Sequence record: PZ386953.1
DNA from: a phage
Length of the DNA: 64,000 nucleotides
Reading direction: 5' to 3' (one strand)
Positions within the stretch are counted from its first letter, which is position 1. Each line of letters starts with the position of its first letter. Both the position numbers and the translations under genes were made by a program. The notes under the pieces were generated by a model that was given only the letters and a program-made list of their open reading frames with translations, was not told the DNA's origin and made no database searches. This document shows positions 21,968-60,626 of this stretch, piece after piece.

Positions 21968-22636
21968 ATGGCTGTAGCTTATCCTACAATACCAATTCCA
22001 GATCTTGAAGATGCAGAAACAGTCCTGAGTGATGACTTCTTGGTTGTCAACCAGACTGATGGGACAAGAAAGGCTAAGATTGACGATGTTGTCAACGATC
22101 TTAGCATTACTAAGATAGTCTATTTCACAGAGGGTGGCTATCTTAAGAGCAAGAAGGACTTTGCTTATGACCCAGAGACTAAGCGCTACTACACGTGGAA
22201 CGGGGATTATCCTAAAATAATCCTCCCAGACTCCACTGTAGAGGGTGCTGGGGGTGTGTCTGCAAATGCATGGTCTGTTTTTGGTGAGCTTGCTGCAACT
22301 TCTTATGGCAGAATAGTTGATTACGGATCTATCGGCGGTCAGCTTGATATGGATCTTGAAGTTGCGGATACCTTTAAGGTTCGACTAACTTCAAATACCA
22401 CAATCTCTTTTGAAAATCAAACAGAAGGTCTTGAAGGGGTGGCGAGAACTATAACCGTATGCATTACTCAGACCTCTGGCGGCAACAAAGTCTATTGGCC
22501 TGATAATGTTAAATGGGCCTACGGAAGAGATCCTATCCTAACATTTACAGCTGGTGCAACAGATATTTTCAAGTTGGAAACCTACGACAACGGGTTAACT
22601 TGGTACGGGGCACTGATCATCGCAGGAGCTATCTAA
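21968..22636 (+). CDS. fibre adaptor-like protein sharing its N-terminal domain with the 1270-aa fibre
   Basis: 222 aa; N-terminal ~110 aa share a motif pattern (DYLVV-Q-D-TR-KI-DVV, F-EGG, DFAY, AW-V) with the N-terminus of ORF 25271..29083. Confidence 0.5.
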   Translation: MAVAYPTIPIPDLEDAETVLSDDFLVVNQTDGTRKAKIDDVVNDLSITKIVYFTEGGYLKSKKDFAYDPETKRYYTWNGDYPKIILPDSTVEGAGGVSANAWSVFGELAATSYGRIVDYGSIGGQLDMDLEVADTFKVRLTSNTTISFENQTEGLEGVARTITVCITQTSGGNKVYWPDNVKWAYGRDPILTFTAGATDIFKLETYDNGLTWYGALIIAGAI

Positions 22637-25270: not shown

Positions 25271-28200
25271 ATGGCTGATATTAAAGTTGTCAGAATTGAA
25301 TCTCTTCCTGCCACTACCGCAGTGACAGAGGATGATTACCTGGTTGTTCAACAACCAGACCTGACTCGTCGTGTAAAAATTGGCGATGTTGTCCATGTGG
25401 ATGGGACTGTTTCTCATGTAATCTCCTTTAAGGAAGGTGGTAAGTTAAACGGCCCAATGGATTTTGCCTACTTCGAAGAGGAAGACCTCTACCTGCGTTG
25501 GAAAGGCGAATTTCCGCACACCGTTCCTGCACTGTCTTCACCATACTCCGATGGTGGGATTACTGACGCTGCATGGATGGTATATACTGACCCGTCCTTA
25601 AGGGAGGAGCTGGAATCTACCATTGGCGCATCTATGATCATGACAGCCGAAGGGCAGTCTGTCCAGGATGTGATGGATGTTACGGTTCAGACAGCTAACG
25701 ATGCTAAAGCACTTGCACAGCGGGTAGATTTTGGTACAGTGCATACTGTAGGTGATGTTATTCACCTTGTCAACTTTGTTGGCCCTGCAGTTATTGAAGA
25801 GGGAAGAACCACCAACTACCCTTCCGTAGCAGCTGGTGAAAGATTTCTGAACGGTGTGGTATCTCGTCGTGATACTACAACTGTTGATGGTATTTTCCGT
25901 GGCGCTACCACCGGAGCCATGTACACCATTGCAGTAACCAACGGTGTAGCAACAACGAAAAGAATAGCACTTCGTGATGAATTTAAACGCCTAGAGGCAA
26001 ACAACCCAACAAGAACAGTTATCCGTGCTGGAGATGATTTAAATACGGCAGGGTACTTGCAGCTTGATGCAACAGGCCGTTGGGGTATGTGGAACCAACA
26101 AACAGCTTCGTGGCAACCTCTTGCTATAGAGCAAGGCGGCACAGGGGCTAGAGATGCCGCTGGAGTCCGTATCAATATCGGTGCTTTCTATAAGCAACGT
26201 GCAGCCCTTGAGCCAAATTTCAATATCAATAACTTGACTGGTAATCAGGATGGTGTATACTACCAGCCAATTACTGCTTATGCAACTGAGGCAAATGGTT
26301 ACCCTGCAGGTTCTGGTGCTGGTCACTTGATTGTTTGGCAGAACAATGCTAACGGAGGTACAGGTTGTCGTCAGGAATACTATCCATTCTCTAACGTAGA
26401 TGTTTGGTATTTGAGAACCTATCAGGCCAACACAAATCAGTGGACTGCATGGCAGCCGATGGTCAGACCTCGTAACGATGATACCTTCAGATCTCATATT
26501 GGCCTTGGTAAAAACAACTCGCCAGCCTTCGGGCACCTTTACTTAGCTCAATACTCGGGAGATGTTAAATCGGCCTCAGGTATTCTCCATGGAGATAAAT
26601 ATAATACTGACGGTGTCCTTGAGCATGGATATAGGATCTATTCTGAGGTAAGAAACGACAATAAGGCTTGGTTGACAATCCACCTGCACAAAGGCGCAAA
26701 AGGATCTGAAACTCATAGATATTTAGGCTTCCGTGAGGATGGGGTCTTAGATTGTCCTAAATATATGCAGGTTGGTGATCTGAACGGTCAGATGGCAAAC
26801 TGGGGACTTGGAGAATGGATCCGCAGTTCAGAAGCAGAAAGAGGTTTCTGGGGATCTAAGAAAGCCGCCAAGATGGTCATTTGGGATGGCGGTATGGACG
26901 AGCAAGGTGAAGGAACGCTTGAGTGGGGTGTTTATAACAACCGGAAAGCCAAATGGGAACCACTACCGATAGCTTGTGGTGGTACCAGTGCCAGGACTGT
27001 AGGGGATGCTCAAGCACAATTCAGAATCCCTCTGGCAGCAGGTGCTAGACCATATGTAAACCTGCCTAGAACTGCAGCTATGCAGGACGGTAAGTATTAT
27101 CCTATTATCGTCAGAACTGACCCCAACTTTGCAGCAACTATCGGGACAGATTTAACCATTGTCACCAGATCTTCTTCTGGCGGCGACCCAATGAACTGTG
27201 CTACACTACAGTGTCACTACAGAACTGGTGGCTGGACAGACAGAGGTGATTCTTTCCAAGGGGTTATTAATTTCTACCAAAACGAGAGAGCAATCCTCGG
27301 ATGTGTATCTCCAACCAGAGGTAAGCAGGAGTATGTTGCATTCTATGTAGAGGCACGTGCATTCCCTGTTACGGTATATGCTGGCGCTACTGTAATAGAA
27401 GTGTCAACCAGGGAGGCTGATTGGCAGGTAGGCAACGTGACAGGTAACCAAGATGGTGTCAAGTTCTGTGCTCCTCTGGAATCTGCAGATTTGAGTCTTG
27501 CAATCAAAGGTGATGATGTAACAAACACCAGACCTCTGGTTGAGTTCAAAGGAACATCAGGTTTCTACACTGGTGGTGGAACTATGTGGCACTACCTGGG
27601 GACTCCTGAACGCTATGCAGTGATGAGCAAAATGAACATGCCTAAAGTCGAGCTTTGGGCAGACGGTATTGACTACATTTGTCCTGGTAGTCAGACCACT
27701 AGAAAAGCACTGTTCTCTAACGCAGGGTTCCAAGCTGCATCGGAAGGAACAGAGGATCTGATCAACAACACCTTTACCTCTAAATGTGGTAATGGTGCAA
27801 GACTGCAAGGCCAGGCAGAGTTCAGATCTACTCCGGAAGCTGGTCAAGTTATCGTTCGCGATGTTGTAGGTACAGCTCATAAGTTCTACAATTTCAACAA
27901 AGACGGCACATTTTTCCCTCCTGGAGGCTATGTTTGCCAGACAGGTGCTGACTGGAACAATCAGTTTGGTAATACAAACCCCTCCAAGATAATGGCTGGC
28001 AATGTCAACGGACCGGAAGGTTCGATGGTTGTTGGTGGACTGTCTGTGGCGTTTTCTGGAAACTATGCTTTCCAAATGGCTGGTCGCCTTGATCAGTTAT
28101 ACACCAGATCTATTGAGGGTGGTAACCACAGGGCGTGGAACAAAGTTATTCAGCACCGTGGTCAAGGTCTGGGGACAGAAGACCTTAATGCCTACGATGG

Positions 28201-29083
28201 TAGCCGTGAAGGTTTCTATCACCAAAGTTCAAACGCTGACGCACTTGTAATAGATCGCCACTACCCTGCTCCGTACGCTGGTACACTGCTTGTTTACAAA
28301 AACACAGCTAACAGACCTCAAGGTTGTGTGCAGGAATATATCACCTATTTTGGTGACAGATATACTCGTGCTGGTAACTACGTTGGCGATGTCTTTACTT
28401 GGGAAGAATGGAGACACGATGCTGGTAAAGGCATTCAGTTAAGACCTAATCACACTTTTGGTGAAACCAGTAATCAACTGGAAATTCATGTCGGTGCTAA
28501 TAGTCTTTCTAGCAACGCCGATAACTTACCTACCAATACAGGTAGAATGTTCTATTGGGGTAACGCAGACAGGAAGAACGTGCTTGAGTTTCAGGTAAAC
28601 GACAACGCTGCATCTGCTAGCTGGGTATTCCACTGTGGCACTAGGTCAGACGAGGCTAAGTCAAGATATTTTGCTGTCAACGGTGTAGTAGAGTGCACCA
28701 CTGTGAGCCAGAGCTCTGATAGAGACCTGAAGGACAATATAGAGGTTATTCCTAACGCGCTGGAAGCTATCCGTAAGATGAAGGGCTATACCTACACTTT
28801 AAAAGAGAATGGTATGCCTCACGCGGGGGTAATTGCTCAAGAGGTCATGGAAGCATTGCCAGAGGCAGTAGGGTCTTTCGTGAAAAGGAAGGAAATCCCA
28901 AATCCTGATCAAGATGGAACTCCTTTGATAACAGAAGAAAGGTTCTATAACGTTGACTACGCAGCTGTAACAGGCTTGCTTGTCCAGGTTTGCAGGGAAC
29001 AGGACGATAAAATAACCGCCCTTGAGGAGCAGGTTAAAAAATTGACAGAGGTTGTTACTGGGTTGCAAGAGAAACTGAAGTAA
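25271..29083 (+). CDS. tail fibre/tailspike with C-terminal intramolecular chaperone (peptidase S74-like) domain
   Basis: 1270 aa; C-terminus SSDRDLKDNIEVIPNALEAIRKMKGYTYTL...GVIAQEV...VDYAAVTGLL...coiled coil matches the self-cleaving chaperone domain of endosialidase/L-shaped fibres (from memory). Confidence 0.75.
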   Translation: MADIKVVRIESLPATTAVTEDDYLVVQQPDLTRRVKIGDVVHVDGTVSHVISFKEGGKLNGPMDFAYFEEEDLYLRWKGEFPHTVPALSSPYSDGGITDAAWMVYTDPSLREELESTIGASMIMTAEGQSVQDVMDVTVQTANDAKALAQRVDFGTVHTVGDVIHLVNFVGPAVIEEGRTTNYPSVAAGERFLNGVVSRRDTTTVDGIFRGATTGAMYTIAVTNGVATTKRIALRDEFKRLEANNPTRTVIRAGDDLNTAGYLQLDATGRWGMWNQQTASWQPLAIEQGGTGARDAAGVRINIGAFYKQRAALEPNFNINNLTGNQDGVYYQPITAYATEANGYPAGSGAGHLIVWQNNANGGTGCRQEYYPFSNVDVWYLRTYQANTNQWTAWQPMVRPRNDDTFRSHIGLGKNNSPAFGHLYLAQYSGDVKSASGILHGDKYNTDGVLEHGYRIYSEVRNDNKAWLTIHLHKGAKGSETHRYLGFREDGVLDCPKYMQVGDLNGQMANWGLGEWIRSSEAERGFWGSKKAAKMVIWDGGMDEQGEGTLEWGVYNNRKAKWEPLPIACGGTSARTVGDAQAQFRIPLAAGARPYVNLPRTAAMQDGKYYPIIVRTDPNFAATIGTDLTIVTRSSSGGDPMNCATLQCHYRTGGWTDRGDSFQGVINFYQNERAILGCVSPTRGKQEYVAFYVEARAFPVTVYAGATVIEVSTREADWQVGNVTGNQDGVKFCAPLESADLSLAIKGDDVTNTRPLVEFKGTSGFYTGGGTMWHYLGTPERYAVMSKMNMPKVELWADGIDYICPGSQTTRKALFSNAGFQAASEGTEDLINNTFTSKCGNGARLQGQAEFRSTPEAGQVIVRDVVGTAHKFYNFNKDGTFFPPGGYVCQTGADWNNQFGNTNPSKIMAGNVNGPEGSMVVGGLSVAFSGNYAFQMAGRLDQLYTRSIEGGNHRAWNKVIQHRGQGLGTEDLNAYDGSREGFYHQSSNADALVIDRHYPAPYAGTLLVYKNTANRPQGCVQEYITYFGDRYTRAGNYVGDVFTWEEWRHDAGKGIQLRPNHTFGETSNQLEIHVGANSLSSNADNLPTNTGRMFYWGNADRKNVLEFQVNDNAASASWVFHCGTRSDEAKSRYFAVNGVVECTTVSQSSDRDLKDNIEVIPNALEAIRKMKGYTYTLKENGMPHAGVIAQEVMEALPEAVGSFVKRKEIPNPDQDGTPLITEERFYNVDYAAVTGLLVQVCREQDDKITALEEQVKKLTEVVTGLQEKLK

Positions 29084-38968: not shown

Positions 38969-40009
38969 ATGTCAAAACCTAGTTTTCCATTAGAGATTTG
39001 GGCAGAGGAGGATCAGGTTCTGCCTAACACCCACAGACAGAACAGGCTACGCCCGATTGATGATTTGTGGAGAAAAGGTTGGGATCTTGGTCAAAAGCCC
39101 TCATGTGAAGAACTTAACTATATTTTCAATATGCTCGGAACTTGGGCAAAATATATTGCTGACGAGCAGATCCCCGCTCAAGAAGGCCGTTATCTGGTAC
39201 GCGATAATAACTTGAGTGATCTTTTGAACATTCCTGTTGCCCGTAGAAACCTTGGGATTATTACTAAGGAAGAGGCAGACGCCAGATATGTAAAAGTTAC
39301 AGGTGATACAATGACAGGCCCACTGGGTTTGCAACGTATCAACTTTAAAGCTGCCGAGACAGATAAGGCTTGGATAGAGACAACTATTGGCCCAGATAAG
39401 ACAACTCTCGACTTTGGGTTAAGTGATAATACCGGGTCGTTTGATGATGGTGGTACATCTACAGTAGATGCGTTCCGTTGGAGATTCCAGCCAACTCAGC
39501 CGGATATTAATCCAGAGTTCACTTTGATGTACCTTAACGCGATCACGGCTAACCGTGCGCTGTTGAAAGTGGTAGGCAATGTTGAAGTTGTCGATAACAT
39601 GAGGTGCAATAACCTTACTATCAGCAATACAGCAACATTCACCAACTGTAATGTGGCTAGTCAGTTGACGGCTGGGTCAGTATATGTTAATGGTGGTGCA
39701 AGTTGTGACAGCATGGTTGTAAGAAGCCAGCACTGTGTTGTCGGTAACAGAAATGTGGTGCGCTCTGTGAATGGGGTGACGGCTAACGGTAACGGTGATG
39801 TAACAATCACTATCCCGCAGACAGGTGTGCAAGACATCAGAATCGGTGCAAGACTTGTTGACGGCGTTTCTGAATCTCCAATTCGCAACGGCTACGTTGT
39901 CACAGGCTGGCATTTCGGTGACAAAAAAGAGATGCGTGGTTCAACCTACTGGGCAGGACCTTTACAAAAACTTGTAAATGGTCAATGGATCACTGTTAAT
40001 TATGCATAG
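38969..40009 (+). CDS. receptor-binding tail fibre, paralogue A
   Basis: 346 aa; paralogous over its length to ORF 41024..42067 (shared N-terminus M-x-KP..PL.IWA, central FRWRFQP...LNAITANRA, C-terminal QKLVNGQWIT). Confidence 0.55.
   Translation: MSKPSFPLEIWAEEDQVLPNTHRQNRLRPIDDLWRKGWDLGQKPSCEELNYIFNMLGTWAKYIADEQIPAQEGRYLVRDNNLSDLLNIPVARRNLGIITKEEADARYVKVTGDTMTGPLGLQRINFKAAETDKAWIETTIGPDKTTLDFGLSDNTGSFDDGGTSTVDAFRWRFQPTQPDINPEFTLMYLNAITANRALLKVVGNVEVVDNMRCNNLTISNTATFTNCNVASQLTAGSVYVNGGASCDSMVVRSQHCVVGNRNVVRSVNGVTANGNGDVTITIPQTGVQDIRIGARLVDGVSESPIRNGYVVTGWHFGDKKEMRGSTYWAGPLQKLVNGQWITVNYA
39965..39994 (+). repeat. 30-nt segment identical to 42022..42051 (3' end of fibre paralogue A)
   Basis: CAAAAACTTGTAAATGGTCAATGGATCACT read identically at both loci while flanking DNA is diverged. 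Confidence 0.8.
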
Positions 40010-40993: not shown

Positions 40994-41023
40994 AGTCCTA
41001 AGGAATTTTCTCAGGAGAACGTG

Positions 41024-42067
41024 ATGACTAAACCAGTTATCCCTCTTGATATTTGGGCCAATCAGGATGTTGTGCTTGAAAATACGGGAGAATTGAATAA
41101 GTCCCAACCAAAAAAAGAAGAGAGACTGAAAGGTTGGGATATGACACAAAGAGTGGCATGTGAAGTTGTTAACTTTGAACTTCACATGCTTTCTGCGTGG
41201 TTAAAGCATTTAACAGAAGATGTTGTCCCAGGATGGGATAATAGATTCTTAAGGGTCACTAATAATCTGGCAGACGTTCCAGACAAAGCTGCTGCACGTC
41301 AAGTTCTCAATGTATACTCGCCTGAAGAAATGGATGACCTTTATGTTGACAAGGCTGGAGACACAATGATCCAGACTCAAACTTTAGGTCTTCAAAGAAT
41401 CGAGTTTGCATCCGCGTCAACAGACAATGCGGCGATATACACCACCATAACTTCAGACAAGACGATGATGGATTTCTGGATTATGGACAACATCGGTGGT
41501 GCTGACGGCACAGACCTTGATGATCCCTCTCACCAAATAGACGGTTTCCGTTGGAGATTTCAACCTTCTGGTGGGCAGCCTGTGTTTTCAGCTATGAAGC
41601 TCAATGCTATAACTGCCAACCGTGCAAGACTGGCTATCCAAGGAAATCTTGAATGCAACGACGCAAAAAGTTCCTCTGCAAATGCCAATGCAGCTACGAT
41701 ACCAAGAGCCACTGTTAATGGACAACAATCCTGTGGAAGCGCTCAAATAGGTGGAAGAGTTGATTGTAACGATGAAACCGTCAGGGGCCAATATGCAACA
41801 GTTGGTGGAAGAAACGTGGTCCGCAGGGTAAATGGTAACAGCGCAGACGGTAGTGGTAACCTTACTATCCCTATGCCCAGCAGAGGGGTTGATGATGTGA
41901 GGATAGCAAACCGTTTCAAAACCACCTACAGAGAGTCAAGAGTCTACCCTGGACATGTGATGTGCTCGGGTAACTACGCTTATAAACACCCTTATCAAGG
42001 TGATTACTGGACAGGTGCTATCCAAAAACTTGTAAATGGTCAATGGATCACTATATCTTATGCTTAA
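41024..42067 (+). CDS. receptor-binding tail fibre, paralogue B
   Basis: ATG 41024 with AGGAGA SD; N-terminus MTKPVIPLDIWAN parallels paralogue A; own promoter. Confidence 0.55.
   Translation: MTKPVIPLDIWANQDVVLENTGELNKSQPKKEERLKGWDMTQRVACEVVNFELHMLSAWLKHLTEDVVPGWDNRFLRVTNNLADVPDKAAARQVLNVYSPEEMDDLYVDKAGDTMIQTQTLGLQRIEFASASTDNAAIYTTITSDKTMMDFWIMDNIGGADGTDLDDPSHQIDGFRWRFQPSGGQPVFSAMKLNAITANRARLAIQGNLECNDAKSSSANANAATIPRATVNGQQSCGSAQIGGRVDCNDETVRGQYATVGGRNVVRRVNGNSADGSGNLTIPMPSRGVDDVRIANRFKTTYRESRVYPGHVMCSGNYAYKHPYQGDYWTGAIQKLVNGQWITISYA
42022..42051 (+). repeat. 30-nt segment identical to 39965..39994 (3' end of fibre paralogue B)
   Basis: Same 30-mer as in paralogue A, encoding QKLVNGQWIT. 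Confidence 0.8.
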
Positions 42068-49795: not shown

Positions 49796-49831
49796 AATAA
49801 AAAGGGGCCAAACGGCCCCTTTCTTTTTATA
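49796..49831. terminator. bidirectional intrinsic terminator between convergent operons
   Basis: AGGGGCC-AAAC-GGCCCCT hairpin flanked by an A tract upstream and a T tract downstream. Confidence 0.7.
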
Positions 49832-52012: not shown

Positions 52013-52579
52013 TTATTCAAACTGCAATAGTAAGTCCACCACCGCGCTAGGTCTGTCAACAAATTCCCCAGGTCCACATGCCCACAGAGGGTATCCGTCT
52101 ACATACCGCCAAATCCAACCTGCAGTGTGGAGTTCGAGCAGGGCAGTACCGTCCTTACTGTCAACCACTCTTTCCCACAGTGTCGGGCAGCGAAGCTTGA
52201 GGATCGGATCCCCTCCCTTATACCCATCCATGTAGATACCCATTGCAAAGTTCAGCATCATCTTTTTGTGCACTGATCTTTTACTGAGGGTACTCATCAC
52301 TTCCTCTTTGTGAATGTTTGTAAGCTTCTCCTTGGCTACCCGCAGATCGTTGCAACCATTGTTCAGCAGATCTTCCAGACACTTGATCCGAAGGTCGTGA
52401 ATGTCTTTGTCGTGTACCGTTGGCACAGGGTCGTAGCGGTATAGCACTGTTGATACAAGGTTGCTCGGGTGTGGGTCTGACAGCAACCCATAACCCCAAT
52501 ACTCTTCTGTATCTGAAAGGACAAGACACCCAATGTCTCTGTCAAGCTTTCCTGTGTTGTAAGCCACATTGACCGCCAT
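52013..52579 (-). CDS. hypothetical protein (188 aa)
   Basis: ORF in leftward operon; no family recognised. Confidence 0.5.
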   Translation of the reverse strand: MAVNVAYNTGKLDRDIGCLVLSDTEEYWGYGLLSDPHPSNLVSTVLYRYDPVPTVHDKDIHDLRIKCLEDLLNNGCNDLRVAKEKLTNIHKEEVMSTLSKRSVHKKMMLNFAMGIYMDGYKGGDPILKLRCPTLWERVVDSKDGTALLELHTAGWIWRYVDGYPLWACGPGEFVDRPSAVVDLLLQFE

Positions 52580-52581
52580 GA

Positions 52582-52827
52582 CTATAGCTCCACTAGCAAA
52601 GTGCTTTCAAAGTGCCGTTCATGCAAACCGTTGTAAGGGACCACTTCTACAACGCCATCACGGACATATGGGGCCATCATGGTGGTATAATCTCCAAACG
52701 GGTTGGTATTGTCACTAACCACAACCACCTTCTGCCCTTCCTTGGCAGAGTGCCAAATAGATCTGCACTTCATCAGGTGTTCGAGAGCTCCAGGTAAAAT
52801 TTTGTTACGTTCTTTACGGGTCTTCAT
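52582..52827 (-). CDS. hypothetical protein (81 aa)
   Basis: ORF with 4-nt overlap to upstream gene. Confidence 0.45.
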   Translation of the reverse strand: MKTRKERNKILPGALEHLMKCRSIWHSAKEGQKVVVVSDNTNPFGDYTTMMAPYVRDGVVEVVPYNGLHERHFESTLLVEL

Positions 52828-53273
52828 AGCAGGTATAGCTCCTTATGAAAGTGATCTTTTAATTTCTCACTGAGAAACCTCTTGATACCTTCCTCTAAAG
52901 TGTTTTCGATGTAGTCCAGCTTAACTGCTTCGATGGACATATCATAGATTGCCAGCTCTAAGCTGTCAAGTCCCATCATAGCATGAACCATAAGATTTTC
53001 ATCTTCAGATACATTCAGGGGACTTCCTATAACATCTGGAGGCAGAATAGTTTCCCAATTATTCTGGGTGGTAGTTCTCCCGCCATCTACTTTACGGCGC
53101 AGTTCGAATGTGTTCTTAGTGTAGAACACTTCATAAGAAACGATACGACTGTCACTCTCATAATAAACGAAGTTCAGGTAGGAGCCTAGCCGCAGTCGGC
53201 AAACTTCCACCCCAAACCATTGTTTCTTATAAGAATTCAGGCTAATGCTGTCGCATTCACGTTTGCTCAACAC
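52824..53273 (-). CDS. hypothetical protein (149 aa)
   Basis: ORF in leftward operon. Confidence 0.5.
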   Translation of the reverse strand: MLSKRECDSISLNSYKKQWFGVEVCRLRLGSYLNFVYYESDSRIVSYEVFYTKNTFELRRKVDGGRTTTQNNWETILPPDVIGSPLNVSEDENLMVHAMMGLDSLELAIYDMSIEAVKLDYIENTLEEGIKRFLSEKLKDHFHKELYLL

Positions 53274-53289
53274 GGCTATCTCCTTTTTG

Positions 53290-53523
53290 TTAATCTTCGT
53301 AAATCAGGATTTCTGCTTTAGGTTTTCGTGCTTTCAGGTCCAGCTCTATCCAGTGCACCATAGCTGTTTCAAGAAAAACAGCTTGGATGCATCCGTCCTC
53401 AGCGTGCCCCACCAACATAACGAGATCTTCACCTTCGTCATCTGCATCACGAACATAAAGAATCTCTCCAGATTCGAAGTCTTTCACAACCTGATTGCTA
53501 GATAATTTTCTAATTTTTGCCAT
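53290..53523 (-). CDS. small protein, tandem paralogue D (77 aa)
   Basis: Shares G-E-(I/V)-(L/V) core and acidic patches with the three upstream ~87-aa paralogues. Confidence 0.5.
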   Translation of the reverse strand: MAKIRKLSSNQVVKDFESGEILYVRDADDEGEDLVMLVGHAEDGCIQAVFLETAMVHWIELDLKARKPKAEILIYED

Positions 53524-53524
53524 A

Positions 53525-53788
53525 TCAGAAACCCTCTAAAAAGCTCTTGTAGAAAACAATCTCAGTATCCACACCAGTCACAATCTTGTCGTTCCTGATT
53601 TCATCGGTAAGATAGGTGTCAAAACGCAGAACCTGTGTGGTGTTGTCACACATCCACTCAGCTGTGACCATTGCGAAAATCTTAGCATCTTCATTATCTG
53701 GTGTGAATGTTACCACCTCACCGCACTTAAACTTTTCGATAGGCTGAGTGTTAGCTTTCGGTTCTGCGATAGTGATTTTTGTGGTCAT
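53525..53788 (-). CDS. small protein, tandem paralogue C (87 aa)
   Basis: CGEVVTF and VTGVDTEIVF motifs parallel paralogues A/B. Confidence 0.5.
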   Translation of the reverse strand: MTTKITIAEPKANTQPIEKFKCGEVVTFTPDNEDAKIFAMVTAEWMCDNTTQVLRFDTYLTDEIRNDKIVTGVDTEIVFYKSFLEGF

Positions 53789-54051
53789 TATTCTCCTCCT
53801 TCTTTTGAATAGCTTGTCTCTCCAAGGATGGTAATTTTGGTGTCAAGCTCTGTAACTTTCATGTTTGGCGGCAGATCGTACAACTCATTATTTTCTAAAT
53901 CGAACCCCCACACACAATGTTCTCCTGTTTTGACAATCATAACTATGTTTTGAATGCCGTCTCCGTCGCAACTTACCACGGTCCCACACGGAAAACTGTC
54001 TGCACGCTTTTTGTTCTTCACCTTAGAATTGAATACAATGCTGGTAGCCAT
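53788..54051 (-). CDS. small protein, tandem paralogue B (87 aa)
   Basis: MAT start, GTVV, FDL, VTELD, ILGE motifs shared with paralogue A; start overlaps A's stop by 1 nt. Confidence 0.5.
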   Translation of the reverse strand: MATSIVFNSKVKNKKRADSFPCGTVVSCDGDGIQNIVMIVKTGEHCVWGFDLENNELYDLPPNMKVTELDTKITILGETSYSKEGGE

Positions 54052-54314
54052 TATTGTTCCTCCACCATAACTTCGCCAAGAATTTCTATGCAGGCATCCA
54101 TTTCTGTAACAACCAAACTGTGAGGCAGTTCTACAAACACCTTTCTGAACAGGTCAAATACCCCAACATATATGTTTGCAGGATGTGATTTTACAACAAG
54201 TGCTGTATTCACATCCCCAAGTTCATCAACAAACATCACCACAGTGCCTGGAGCTACTGAGGACAGATACTTCTTAGTTTTACGGTTTGATGCAAATTTT
54301 AACTCTGTTGCCAT
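54051..54314 (-). CDS. small protein, tandem paralogue A (87 aa)
   Basis: Strong AGAGGAGG SD; first of four coupled paralogous genes. Confidence 0.55.
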   Translation of the reverse strand: MATELKFASNRKTKKYLSSVAPGTVVMFVDELGDVNTALVVKSHPANIYVGVFDLFRKVFVELPHSLVVTEMDACIEILGEVMVEEQ

Positions 54315-54329
54315 AAATAACCTCCTCTC

Positions 54330-55811
54330 TTACTTAGCGTACTCGATTAATTCCACAGTTTTCCCAAAGCTCGGGATATAATTTTTATTATACCCCTCAG
54401 TGAGGACCCATAGAGTATCGTACTTTTTCCACTTGTTGTCAACAACCTTTTGTTCAAAGTTATGCTCAAAGTATAGGTCGGTCAGGACGATGACATCTTT
54501 TGCATTAGGTATGTTGGCATCCAGATACTCGAACACGCAAGCAGCTGTTGTGCCCCATGTTGAGTGGACCTCATAGTTGACCATCTCGTCTATGTTGCCG
54601 CGAGTGTATACTTTAACCTCTCCAACCTCAGTTGACCAACAGAACATTGTAACCTTAAACTCTTTATACAGATTGCACAATCCGGTGATTTCATTGAACA
54701 TTTTCTTTAAAGTTCTTTGAGAGATCGAGCCAGAAACGTCTAAAGCCACCACAATATCTATAGTGTTTTCCGGATTACGACCAGGAACAATAACGTGCTG
54801 GTTCTTGTTTATAGCCCCAACTTTTCGCATTGTGCTGGTCAAAGACCCAGATCGGCGACCAGGTTTTCTGTAGGTCAGTTCGGCCTTTCTTTTAGACAAC
54901 ATACGTTGCTTAATGATGTCTATATAGTTGATTACAGGCTTACCTCTGTTCTTGACAAACTCACGCACCGCCTCAGGGCAACGGCCTCCGGACGCTTGCA
55001 TTGCTGCCTCCAGCATATCACCAGAGTCCTGCATGGCCTGATCTTTATCAGATTGGCTGATTACAGGTTGTGGCTGATCATACCCCATAGCCTTTCCAAG
55101 ATTATCACTGGTGCCACCGTTCCCACTCATGTGATCATCGGTTTGTCGCTTATCACTTTGAGAGTTCTCACCTTTACCGTTCTTACTTTTACCGTTATTC
55201 TGATCTCTTTGCTTATCAAGAACTGCATAAACGTTCTCAGCAATCCATCCATGAAACTTCATGTCGCAGTAGCAGCTGGCTAAGAAGCCAAAAGGCTTAC
55301 CTTTCATGAACGTAGTGCTTTTCCCCTTCGGGAAGAAAACACAAGGAGGTTTGCTAAAGTCAACCACAAGGCCTGTGTTGATAACGTGATCACAAGCAAT
55401 ATTGAACAGTTCCGGCTCAAAGCTTTTACCACGGACTAGGTGATCACAGATAATATGCCCCACCTCATGTGACAGAAGGAAGGCCACCTCTTTCACAGAT
55501 TTTGGGGAATAGAAAACTTCAGCCATCTCAAACTGCTCGTCAGTTAGAGAAGCCTTAAGAATAGCCTTGCGTTCATCAGCCAATCCCATAATGAACTCAG
55601 GACTGTAATAGATGCGTTTATGGTCGGTTGCCATGGTGGAGCACCATGTGTGGTTTTCTACGAACTGCAACCCTGACAGTAGTGTGCCATAAAACGGCAA
55701 CTTTTCAAGGAGATACATACGTGCAGCCTGCAACATTCTCAGGGCATCATCTTTCTGCGAGGCAATGATTTCTGAACTTCTGCTATCCATTAAAACTCCA
55801 GGAGGGGCCAT
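54330..55811 (-). CDS. metallopeptidase-domain plus VWA-domain protein
   Basis: HExxH-type motif LLSHEVGHIICDH in N-terminal half; MIDAS-like VVALDVSGSIS in C-terminal half; 493 aa. Confidence 0.7.
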   Translation of the reverse strand: MAPPGVLMDSRSSEIIASQKDDALRMLQAARMYLLEKLPFYGTLLSGLQFVENHTWCSTMATDHKRIYYSPEFIMGLADERKAILKASLTDEQFEMAEVFYSPKSVKEVAFLLSHEVGHIICDHLVRGKSFEPELFNIACDHVINTGLVVDFSKPPCVFFPKGKSTTFMKGKPFGFLASCYCDMKFHGWIAENVYAVLDKQRDQNNGKSKNGKGENSQSDKRQTDDHMSGNGGTSDNLGKAMGYDQPQPVISQSDKDQAMQDSGDMLEAAMQASGGRCPEAVREFVKNRGKPVINYIDIIKQRMLSKRKAELTYRKPGRRSGSLTSTMRKVGAINKNQHVIVPGRNPENTIDIVVALDVSGSISQRTLKKMFNEITGLCNLYKEFKVTMFCWSTEVGEVKVYTRGNIDEMVNYEVHSTWGTTAACVFEYLDANIPNAKDVIVLTDLYFEHNFEQKVVDNKWKKYDTLWVLTEGYNKNYIPSFGKTVELIEYAK

Positions 55812-55823
55812 TGGCCCCTGTCA

Positions 55824-56864
55824 TTATTTAACGTGTTTGAAAATACCTGCCAACTCGGTCATTGTCATGCGGGTGGTCTTCATAAGATCTGTCATAGCTT
55901 TCTCCATAATTGGAGATACTACCATAAAGTTTCCTTTAGTGAAACCTTTATTCCAGTCGGTCACCAACAGGGGTTTAAGTCCAGCTCCAAGACGTTCACC
56001 AGTTAAAGCACAGCATTTGCGAATATACGAACTCTTAAATTGGCTGAACGACAGATCAACTTTCATACCTACATCGTAGAACGTTTGACAATAGAAAGTG
56101 TAAGCTTTGGCAATCTCAACATCATCAGGTAGTGCAGGAACCTCTTCTGTAAGCCCCTCTTCGACCTCCTGAGTCTCTTTTTCCTCTTCATGCACCTGTT
56201 GCGTCATTTCTTCAATCTCTTCTGTGATAGGCTCGTTTACAATGTCGGAAATGTGCTTCTTGGGTGCACGATAAGTAACTTTAGACATCGGTAGCATATC
56301 TTCCTCCTCTTCTTCGTCAAAGAGTGCTAGTTTATCCTCTTCCGTTCCATATTGCAAGATGAAATCTTCAAAAGTATAATCACCTTTCAATTTCTCCATA
56401 CGCTCTTCGCTCAGGTGGAGCATCATCTGCTGGACAATTTTTCGATCAGTTTCGTCTTTAATCAAGACTGCAGTCTTTTTATCTACCAGACAGTCCTTTA
56501 GAGAGTTGCATCTCAATCCCACCACACAACAGTTATCAACCGCATAAGGACCTTCATCATCTATCCGCTCCAGGGATGGGTAGAAAGGATTCCCCAGCCC
56601 GTTTTCATCTGTGTGCATGTCAAAAGGTATAAGGGTATAGTCGCATACTCCATCTCCTAAAAGTTTTTTACCAAATAGGAGGTATTCTTCCCATGACAGG
56701 TCGAACTCTATATCTCGTTTCCGTGCGTTATTCTGTTTGCGTCTATATTTTTTGAGCAAGCGCTCTAACTCTTCTGGTGTATAATATTTTTCAAGATTCA
56801 TGAGTCGTCTCTCGTGCTCTGTAAGTGAAGAAATCGTATCAATTGTCTCAACAGATGTCAACAT
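55824..56864 (-). CDS. protein with two tandem degenerate HNH/EndoVII-like domains and acidic linker
   Basis: N-terminal IEFDLSWEEY...CDYT...VDNCCVVGLRCNSLK and C-terminal VDLSFSQFKSSY...CCALT... are mutually similar; start taken at ATG 56864 (track uses TTG 56867). Confidence 0.5.
   Translation of the reverse strand: MLTSVETIDTISSLTEHERRLMNLEKYYTPEELERLLKKYRRKQNNARKRDIEFDLSWEEYLLFGKKLLGDGVCDYTLIPFDMHTDENGLGNPFYPSLERIDDEGPYAVDNCCVVGLRCNSLKDCLVDKKTAVLIKDETDRKIVQQMMLHLSEERMEKLKGDYTFEDFILQYGTEEDKLALFDEEEEEDMLPMSKVTYRAPKKHISDIVNEPITEEIEEMTQQVHEEEKETQEVEEGLTEEVPALPDDVEIAKAYTFYCQTFYDVGMKVDLSFSQFKSSYIRKCCALTGERLGAGLKPLLVTDWNKGFTKGNFMVVSPIMEKAMTDLMKTTRMTMTELAGIFKHVK
56265..56293 (-). repeat. 29-nt inverted-repeat arm 1
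   Basis: Reverse complement equals TACCGATGTCTAAAGTTACTTATCGTGCA, identical to 58127..58155; encodes internal LPMSKVTYRA preceded by GAGGAGGAAG. Confidence 0.85.
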
Positions 56865-56875
56865 CAAAAACGTGT

Positions 56876-59172: not shown

Positions 59173-59442
59173 ATGTTATACCAGCAATATGAACTTCGTG
59201 CAGAAAAAGAGTTAAATTTTGACAAAGATATTCACAGATATTATTATGGGAAAGTTAGAGGGCAAGCAAGAAAGTGTACTCCAACACTCTTTTATGCCAG
59301 CAGACGACTAGCGCCAGAAGAGGCAACAGCAGAAAGGGTTGCGTACAACTGGAGAGTCACGTATGATATTGACAGATTCGATGTGATATCTGTTTTGGAA
59401 AACTTTGAAAACACTTACACACAAGTAGAGGACTTTTACTAA
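59173..59442 (+). CDS. hypothetical protein (89 aa)
   Basis: AAGGAG SD. Confidence 0.45.
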   Translation: MLYQQYELRAEKELNFDKDIHRYYYGKVRGQARKCTPTLFYASRRLAPEEATAERVAYNWRVTYDIDRFDVISVLENFENTYTQVEDFY

Positions 59443-60626
59443 TGTCAAGAAACGTATTCGAAAGTGGTCAAATCACTGTCCGTGAGTTGCCAGCTATTAT
59501 TCAGTTTGCCCAACGTCATAGCCGATCTGTCCTAATTTTGGGACCAATGGGTGTGGGTAAAAGCCAGGTGATGAAGCAGATCGCTGATAATATGTTCGGT
59601 GAGCGAGATGACAACCTTGTTGACGTGCGACTGTCAGATAAAGATCCTGCCGACTTATCTGGGCTACCTATCCCTGTAGAAGCGGATGGAACTACACGTA
59701 CAGTGTTTGCAATTCCAGAATTTTGGCCTGCGAATCCTGACTGGAGCGGAATTATCTTTCTGGATGAGCTCACTCATGCAGATAACTACCTGCAAAAGGT
59801 TGCAATGCAAATTATGCTTGACCACAAGTGCGGCACCTATGCATTCCCTAAGGGCTCTGTTTTTGTGGCTGCGGGTAACCGTTCTACAGATGGTGCGGTT
59901 CTTTCGGCGCTCGAAGCCCCTCTGGCTAACCGTTTTATCATTGTAGAGGTTACAAGCAATGCAGAGGTGTTTATTGAGGACTACGCATTCCTCAACGGGG
60001 TTCACTCCTCTGTAATTGGGTATCTGAAAAGAGTTCCATCAGCTATTGATAATTATGAGGCTATGGCTGAGATTAATTGTCCATCTTTTGCCACACCACG
60101 ATCTTGGGTTGCTGCATCTGACATCTTGCACGATTTTGACAGCGGTATTATTTCTGACGCTATGGCCCGTGTTCTTCTGCAAGGTGCTATTGGTCACACT
60201 GCAGCGGTAGAGATCTGGACTTACCACACCAAGAAACGTAATTTACCGGAAATCGGTCGGATTATGGCAGGTGGCTGCAAAGAATATGTAGGTCCTAAGC
60301 AGCCAGACATTTTGTGGATTCTTGGATCTGAAGGTTGTATCGCTATTCGCAATATGATGGAAAATGCAAGTATCTCAGACGAAGATCTTGTCAGCTGCGT
60401 GGCAAACTTCCTCGATTTCCTTTGGGAAAACTTCAAGGACGAGAACCGAGATTTTGTATTCTCAGTCTTTATGGCGATGATGAAACCTAATGCCTTAGGA
60501 AATGCCTTGCTTATCGGTAAAGGGCGTGACAAGATTGTTGCTCAGCTGATCAAAGCATACCCAAACCTGATGAAGATTGTAAAAGAGTTTGGTGAAGAGT
60601 TTAGCGCCATTTTGGCTAAAGCTTAA
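59442..60626 (+). CDS. MoxR/CbbQ-type AAA+ ATPase
   Basis: Walker A LILGPMGVGKSQ, Walker B IIFLDELTHA, sensor-1-like VAAGN, Arg-finger-like ANRF; 394 aa. Confidence 0.75.
   Translation: MSRNVFESGQITVRELPAIIQFAQRHSRSVLILGPMGVGKSQVMKQIADNMFGERDDNLVDVRLSDKDPADLSGLPIPVEADGTTRTVFAIPEFWPANPDWSGIIFLDELTHADNYLQKVAMQIMLDHKCGTYAFPKGSVFVAAGNRSTDGAVLSALEAPLANRFIIVEVTSNAEVFIEDYAFLNGVHSSVIGYLKRVPSAIDNYEAMAEINCPSFATPRSWVAASDILHDFDSGIISDAMARVLLQGAIGHTAAVEIWTYHTKKRNLPEIGRIMAGGCKEYVGPKQPDILWILGSEGCIAIRNMMENASISDEDLVSCVANFLDFLWENFKDENRDFVFSVFMAMMKPNALGNALLIGKGRDKIVAQLIKAYPNLMKIVKEFGEEFSAILAKA

Follow-up and report, generated by a model that had tools for sequence, protein, structure and literature searches.

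Four small tandem genes of an rV5-like phage form one divergent family with an exchangeable first slot and two strongly constrained copies

Four consecutive small genes, here called A to D, belong on profile evidence to a single protein family and illustrate clearly how duplicated copies can come under sharply different constraint. They lie in a 64,000-nucleotide stretch of phage DNA (sequence record PZ386953.1), hereafter the window. A and B occupy a slot whose content differs between close relatives, while C and D are nearly invariant. As an explanation, we tentatively favor the expansion, within one phage lineage, of a small acidic binding module that would most likely act on host proteins.

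Results

Comparison with phage records placed the window in a Murica-type Vequintavirus (rV5-like). The region 52500-56000 matched 119 phage records and was 99.7-99.8% identical to Escherichia phages rV5_ev146, pangalan, and Murica, all Vequintavirus. The four minus-strand open reading frames (ORFs) are exactly as originally predicted, with 87, 87, 87, and 77 codons (Table 1), and the sequence also bears out the predicted junctions: one-base overlaps (TAATG) between A and B at 54051 and between B and C at 53788, and a single base (53524) between the stop of C and the start of D. In Murica, the equivalents of A-D are gp13-gp16, each annotated "hypothetical protein." Gene A is orthologous to gp13 and is missing from rV5-type genomes; the counterparts of C are rV5 ORF15 and bas54_0053, and those of D are rV5 ORF16 and bas54_0052.

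Each of the four genes has its own Shine-Dalgarno (SD) sequence 7-9 nt upstream of its start, and those of B, C, and D are embedded in the gene before them, in its C-terminal tail codons: GGAGG in the codons for VEEQ and stop (for B), AGGAGG in those for EGGE and stop (for C), and GAGGG in those for LEGF and stop (for D). Because these SDs fall in the last codons of the preceding genes, the Glu/Gly-rich C-terminal tails are shaped in part by the ribosome-binding site of the next gene. We note that this double use extends to A, B, and C and to X, the rV5-type gene described below. From the overlaps and embedded SDs, translational coupling of A-D is possible; similarly tight junctions are the rule across the whole operon.

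Table 1. Positions of the array, its surroundings, and other paralogous genes in the window.
Feature	Positions	Strand	Description and basis
222-aa protein gene	21968-22636		shares its N-terminus with the 1270-aa fiber
1270-aa fiber gene	25271-29083		
Tail-fiber gene	38969-40009	plus	346 aa
Tail-fiber gene	41021-42067	plus	348 aa
Terminator	49801-49822		equivalent of the bidirectional terminator after rV5 gene 26
Gene F	52582-52827	minus	81 aa; phrog_4868; 49%-identical homolog in metagenomic relative L009
Gene E	52824-53273	minus	149 aa
Gene D	53290-53523	minus	ORF, 77 aa, pI 4.6; highly conserved, most diverged paralog
Gene C	53525-53788	minus	ORF, 87 aa, pI 4.5; highly conserved distant paralog
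Gene B	53788-54051	minus	ORF, 87 aa, pI 4.9; second variable-slot member, paralog of A
Swapped cassette A+B	53799-54300	minus	blastn of the window against rV5 and SYGMH1; rV5/Murica annotation
Gene A	54051-54314	minus	ORF, 87 aa, pI 5.0; variable-slot member
Shine-Dalgarno of gene A	54321-54326	minus	AGGAGG, read directly from the sequence
DUF2201 metallopeptidase/VWA gene	54330-55811	minus	just upstream of the array; corresponds to bas54_0055
Srd-like gene	55824-56867	minus	
Sigma70-type promoter (predicted)	56833-56861	minus	consensus scan: TTGACA-17-TACGAT with TG, upstream of the Srd-like gene
394-aa ORF	59442-60626	plus	divergent arm, at the position of rV5 MoxR ATPase gene 4; corresponds to bas54_0063; assigned by size and position

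Operon context suggests that the array is expressed early. The rV5 paper describes genes 11-26 as one unit, for which it predicts a sigma70 promoter (P011) ahead of the Srd-like anti-sigma gene and, after gene 26, a bidirectional terminator (PMC3606486). The window promoter, read from 56861 to 56833, has the same sequence as P011 (PMC3606486 Table S4) and likely drives the unit to which A-D belong; inside the array, the consensus scan found no strong promoter or terminator. Since a consensus sigma70 promoter and an adjacent Srd-like anti-sigma gene stand at the head of the operon, it is reasonable to infer early expression, in line with the original description of these as early-region genes. 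A structural role in the virion is unlikely given the operon position and rV5 virion proteomics, as rV5 gp14-16 had no virion mass-spectrometry evidence and no homologs listed (PMC3606486, Table S3).

Several annotations near the array deserve comment. The PHROG-derived names "tail protein" for gene E and "HNH endonuclease" for both the DUF2201 and Srd-like genes look wrong, and such doubtful names have been copied into the RefSeq annotations of GAP31, Hena1, and Klebsiella phages; one record names gene E "holin." In the rV5 reference (L002, DQ832317, 1024-2485), the DUF2201 gene is divided between two overlapping ORFs, ORF12 (441 aa) and ORF13 (81 aa). In the window and most relatives it is a single ORF of 486-493 aa, which suggests a frameshift or sequencing error in the rV5 reference. 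Other paralog pairs in the window are tail-fiber genes: two plus-strand genes are 43% identical over 356 aa, matching in size and identity the gp30/gp33 pair of the rV5 paper (PMC3606486), and a 222-aa protein resembles the start of the 1270-aa fiber (Table 1).

Sequence similarity among the four proteins, which had been described as a paralogous family, exceeds chance but is uneven. A and B were 38-39% identical (Smith-Waterman z=20, 500 shuffles; BLASTP E=6e-10), and the other five pairs were 15-22% identical in the multiple alignment, so the original estimate of roughly a third identity holds for A-B but not for the rest. Raw Smith-Waterman scores for pairs with C or D spanned z=1.2-4.5 (B-C 4.5, C-D 3.7, B-D 3.0), and A-C and A-D showed no significant raw similarity relative to shuffles; a non-member neighbor gene, as control, reached z=2.7 in the same test.

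Profile comparisons gave a clearer separation. We built an enriched A/B-type HMM from seven sequences, adding to A and B the rV5 ORF14 protein (X), A' and B' of a diverged lineage, and the remote members P0030 and P0031, which came from an exhaustive HMMER scan of 1.84 billion representative proteins. Run against 324 window ORFs of at least 45 aa, this HMM found C (E=6.8e-7) and D (E=4.2e-4), with the best decoy at 0.099. Alignment of the A/B family with hhalign gave 91% probability to C (P=9.5e-7, 77 columns) and 74% to D (P=2.7e-5, 69 columns), both collinear over nearly the full length. Conversely, the best non-self window matches of the C HMM and the D HMM were array members, and among the annotated genes of two metagenomic relatives, L009 and L012, both HMMs picked the single-copy P0031 (E ~1e-3). 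Since these profile scores settle the pairs that were marginal in raw alignment, we conclude on profile evidence that A, B, C, and D all descended from one gene. The motifs originally listed as common to the array were shared only in part: all four proteins have the glycine of G-[TE]-[VI]-[VL], one near-C-terminal isoleucine, and the strand pattern, but K-x-KK, FDL, VTE-x-D, and ILGE are restricted to the A/B type.

A narrower reading holds that only A and B are true paralogs and that C and D are unrelated small beta-rich ORFans with convergent size, composition, and fold. The raw scores of C and D, marginal beside that of the non-member neighbor, speak for it, as do the weak direct hhalign comparison of C with D (P=0.03), the absence of BFVD models of C and D among the best 50 matches of the A model, and a six-locus ORF scan in which the best match of the D HMM was an unrelated ORF (E 0.0055) and P0031 came second (0.022). 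PHROGs likewise places the proteins in three different families, with full-length HMM matches of A (7.6e-43) and B (4.8e-41) to phrog_10698, C (8.8e-62) to phrog_12861, and D (5.1e-55) to phrog_12046. However, the enriched-profile E-values lie orders of magnitude below the best decoy, the hhalign matches are collinear over the full length, the best non-self matches among the 324 window ORFs are array members, and the four genes agree in length, strand order, acidity, and adjacency. We therefore regard this reading as already disfavored and quite unlikely. The three PHROG families contain the same genes from other Vequintavirus genomes, are separate and without annotation, and do not record a common origin, which would merge three "unknown" families into one.

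Gene F was considered as a fifth member and rejected: D and F aligned with z=2.7, but no family HMM finds F. The diverged lineage L006-L008 has similar sequence at the position of gene F, without a called gene.

Copy number at the syntenic site ranges from zero to four across related phages, consistent with the tandem amplification proposed for the array. Seunavirus (GAP31), Mydovirus, Henunavirus, and Certrevirus have no copy; in these genera, the E homolog comes straight after the DUF2201 gene or overlaps it, and the family HMMs match none of the ORFs within 3.5 kb. The metagenomic relatives L009 and L012 (a short contig) have one copy, which in L009 lies directly between the E homolog and a DUF2201 gene whose product is 62% identical to that of the window. 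Three copies (X, C, D) are found in the rV5 type, with 74 Vequintavirus records, and four (A, B, C, D) in 44 records including the window, as well as in lineage L006-L008 as A', B', C, and D. Gene A was present at 90% identity or more in 44 of ~118 Vequintavirus records. An ~86-aa gene between the Srd-like and DUF2201 genes of Seunavirus, Mydovirus, and Henunavirus was considered as a relocated member and rejected (HMM E 1.9).

The family appears essentially confined to Vequintavirus. When 50,697 phage records were searched by tblastn with A, C, D, X, and P0031 (E <=10), nothing credible came up outside this genus, and all nine matches in the HMMER scan of 1.84 billion representatives were from the A-D family. 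A word-indexed protein search, using A alone and the four-gene and 11-sequence alignments, returned near-identical Vequintavirus proteins only and missed the rV5 ORF14 type. We also observed that sixteen GenBank "Campylobacter phage" records (MG0656xx, e.g., MG065635.1 and MG065662.1; host Campylobacter jejuni) are ~98% identical to E. coli Vequintavirus in this region, and their host label looks doubtful. A TnpB/Cas12f-like (OrfB_IS605) gene lies beside the Srd-like gene of L009 (1119-2258), in the divergent-promoter region.

The first slot of the array behaves as a cassette. The A+B segment has no nucleotide similarity to the X gene of rV5, where the slot carries a single 85-aa gene (ORF14), and the flanks are 95-96% identical DNA, with junctions ~15 nt inside the start and ~12 nt before the stop. 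A+B occupies the slot in 44 records and X in 74. A, B, and X are mutually ~40% identical; by segment, X is slightly A-like (11 vs 8) and then B-like (10 vs 6), counts too small to interpret. The combination of a conserved SD with a ATGGCAAC(A) start is found repeatedly, at A, B, X, and A', and these short repeats could mediate cassette swaps and copy-number changes.

Evolutionary rates differ strongly between the slot and the two remaining copies. Against lineage L006, the most diverged of those compared, A and A' are 57% and B and B' 63% identical, while C and D are 95-98% identical; at dS ~0.6, dN in this comparison is 0.30 (A), 0.29 (B), 0.015 (C), and 0.028 (D), which puts dN/dS of C and D at ~0.02-0.04. 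Across phage records, C (118 records) and D are 93-100% identical, among the most conserved genes of the locus. Their dN/dS values (0.01-0.02 for C and 0.03-0.04 for D, at dS ~0.5-0.6) indicate very strong purifying selection, which excludes "junk" genes. Where measurable, dN/dS of A and B is ~0.15-0.24. We note that the divergence of A and B is similar to that of the neighbors E and DUF2201 in the L006 comparison; what is unusual is how little C and D have changed. By these estimates, the array is a fast, exchangeable first slot joined to two strongly constrained copies. The arms-race pattern originally suggested for the whole array thus applies in part: the variable, swapped first slot fits it, but C and D, nearly invariant, carry the opposite signature, and dN/dS exceeded 1 in no comparison of A-D.

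Structure prediction points to an SH3/Tudor/KOW-like small beta-barrel, with the models falling in the SH3-like fold class. AlphaFold2 run on the family alignment gave pLDDT 81 and pTM 0.68 for A and pLDDT 82 and pTM 0.68 for D, with the same order of five or six strands and a low-confidence N-terminal strand (pLDDT ~60). Because the alignments were shallow (10-11 sequences) and that for D included A and B, we treat the models as supporting evidence and not as independent proof of a common fold. Foldseek matches in BFVD were uncharacterized small phage proteins only, and the best non-self match of the D model was protein A of phage nomo, predicted independently (TM 0.73). Being a generic superfold, the small barrel gives little indication of the target.

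The original statement that the family could not be placed still holds, as Pfam, PDB-sequence, PADLOC, and 1.84-billion-protein searches found no known family that fits. A-D had no match in Pfam (none to KOW/Tudor/Sm families at E <=1), none in a PDB sequence-profile search at E <=10, and none among the defense proteins of PADLOC. All family members are acidic (pI 4.2-5.7, net charge -1 to -9), which speaks against direct binding of nucleic acids and is in keeping with protein binding or mimicry.

A published transposon screen suggests that the family is accessory. The HIDEN-SEQ transposon-sequencing preprint mapped essentiality in Bas54, a Vequintavirus (10.1101/2025.11.20.689424). Three genes in its table, bas54_0054 (267 nt), 0053 (264 nt), and 0052 (234 nt), lie between a metallopeptidase gene and a 450-nt gene and fit an rV5-type three-gene array, a correspondence based on gene lengths and order in that table. 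On E. coli K-12, the table lists all three as "Non-essential," with 17/17, 13/15, and 12/12 TA sites disrupted (10.1101/2025.11.20.689424). In one clinical-isolate comparison from the same preprint, whose sheet label and command line disagree on the isolate (CFE303 and 311), the three genes were not depleted (log2FC +0.46, +0.33, and -1.32; adjusted p at least 0.68), whereas the MoxR ATPase (-7.23) and DUF2201 metallopeptidase (-2.20; adjusted p 0.009) genes were (10.1101/2025.11.20.689424). These two correspond to bas54_0063 and bas54_0055, both conditionally essential on the clinical isolate in this table, and the preprint reports that two genes, one of them the MoxR gene, are needed against the predicted defense system DS-28 (10.1101/2025.11.20.689424). 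As far as these tables go, the A-D family is accessory, being dispensable on K-12 and in one clinical-isolate comparison. The K-12 result agrees with the expectation of accessory factors; the clinical-isolate comparison, in which the three Bas54 copies were not required, lends no support to an arms-race or anti-defense role.

Discussion

We propose that A-D arose when a small acidic beta-barrel binding module, encoded in an early operon, expanded within one lineage, and that its partners are most likely host proteins; we hold this reading tentatively and place it a little short of probable. The four genes would be a tandem expansion of one small (77-88 aa), acidic, cytoplasmic barrel protein of five to six strands, made from a host-RNA-polymerase-dependent operon of rV5-like phages and therefore early. 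Each copy would be a stand-alone module that docks onto a protein partner, most likely of the host, and modulates it. The conserved target of C and D would be fixed, and the first slot (A+B or X), exchanged as a cassette between phage lineages, would track something variable, such as strain-specific host factors or defense systems. Early timing, a preference for protein over nucleic acid, a host target, and any counter-defense role are the parts of this proposal that we infer.

Alternatively, the partners may be within the phage. The paralogs could assemble with one another into a hetero-oligomer, in the manner of Sm/LSm-type small barrels, or they could have a phage partner (DUF2201/VWA-MoxR or Srd-like) and serve a regulatory or chaperone role; we consider this rather unlikely. 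The extreme conservation of C and D fits such a role equally well, near-invariance being expected for partners of conserved phage proteins. Tight junctions and SDs embedded in the upstream gene favor roughly equimolar co-expression, the single copy of L009 stands immediately after the DUF2201 gene, and the low-confidence N-terminal strand could be an exchange or oligomerization element. However, DUF2201, MoxR, and the Srd-like gene also occur in other Vequintavirinae genera, which have no detectable family member nearby, and in the available Bas54 tables DUF2201 and MoxR are conditionally essential on the clinical isolate but the three barrel genes are not. A change from three to four copies and a cassette swap would also disturb a complex of fixed stoichiometry. 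Least probable, and in our judgment very unlikely, are toxin-like (Kid/CcdB-type) or nucleic-acid-binding (KOW/Sm-type) small barrels that act on RNA, DNA, or translation. The acidity of the proteins argues against direct nucleic-acid binding, and A-D did not qualify as Kid/MazF/CcdB-type toxins, a class marked by a family HMM match together with an adjacent antitoxin and toxicity.

A stronger form of the binding-module proposal, which we consider unlikely, treats the array as a modular counter-defense or host-tuning locus whose first slot is a swappable specificity cassette. C and D would then neutralize a conserved E. coli factor, the slot allele (A+B, A'+B', X, or P0030-type) would decide which strain-specific immune or host factor the phage overcomes, and the phage would have in its small acidic barrel a new inhibitor scaffold that can evolve. 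Taken as a whole, the host-takeover or anti-defense interpretation that accompanied the original prediction is partly supported: the tandem arrangement, accessory status, and variable slot are in its favor, but the invariance of C and D and, within the Bas54 tables, the lack of a clinical-isolate requirement are not.

As it stands, A-D is a well-documented ORFan family that holds no surprise and has a narrow taxonomic reach. Its common origin, fold class, copy-number series, and cassette polymorphism were not found in the searchable literature; a search by accession number matched no paper. If the binding-module reading is true, rV5-like phages, in wide use as candidates for therapy and biocontrol, would provide a compact natural series, with copy numbers of one, three, and four and at least three alleles at one slot, in which to seek the targets of a new small inhibitor scaffold, and the family could help explain strain-to-strain differences in productive infection. 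A daunorubicin paper mentions Vequintaviruses only for drug sensitivity (PMC13250531).

Compared with known members of the SH3-like superfold (Tudor, KOW, PWWP/chromo, and the C-terminal domain of ribosomal protein L2), A-D share no sequence-family match. They are acidic, stand-alone proteins, whereas those members are basic and embedded as domains, and neither an aromatic cage nor a KOW glycine motif was identified in A-D. Uncharacterized small barrels of other phages, for example Vibrio phage Thalassa (A0A2H5BHC0), Serratia phage Hera (A0A7T3N9D3), N4 (gp21), and PaP3 (ORF65), have a similar predicted fold at 70-90 aa (Foldseek E 1e-4 to 1e-1, TM 0.55-0.7), and the A model and the D model recovered the same ones. 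With 9-22% identity, they have no detectable sequence homology to the family, and since they are without an assigned role, no function can be transferred from them.

Polymorphic accessory or counter-defense loci are known from lytic phages, for example the T4 internal-protein genes ipI-III and accessory regions between conserved genes. The array differs from such T4-type loci in that no defense system or host target is linked to it and in that half of it (C and D) is invariant. The likeness would lie in non-essential small genes of an early or takeover region, ~40%-identical alleles between near-identical flanks, and copy-number variation in close relatives.
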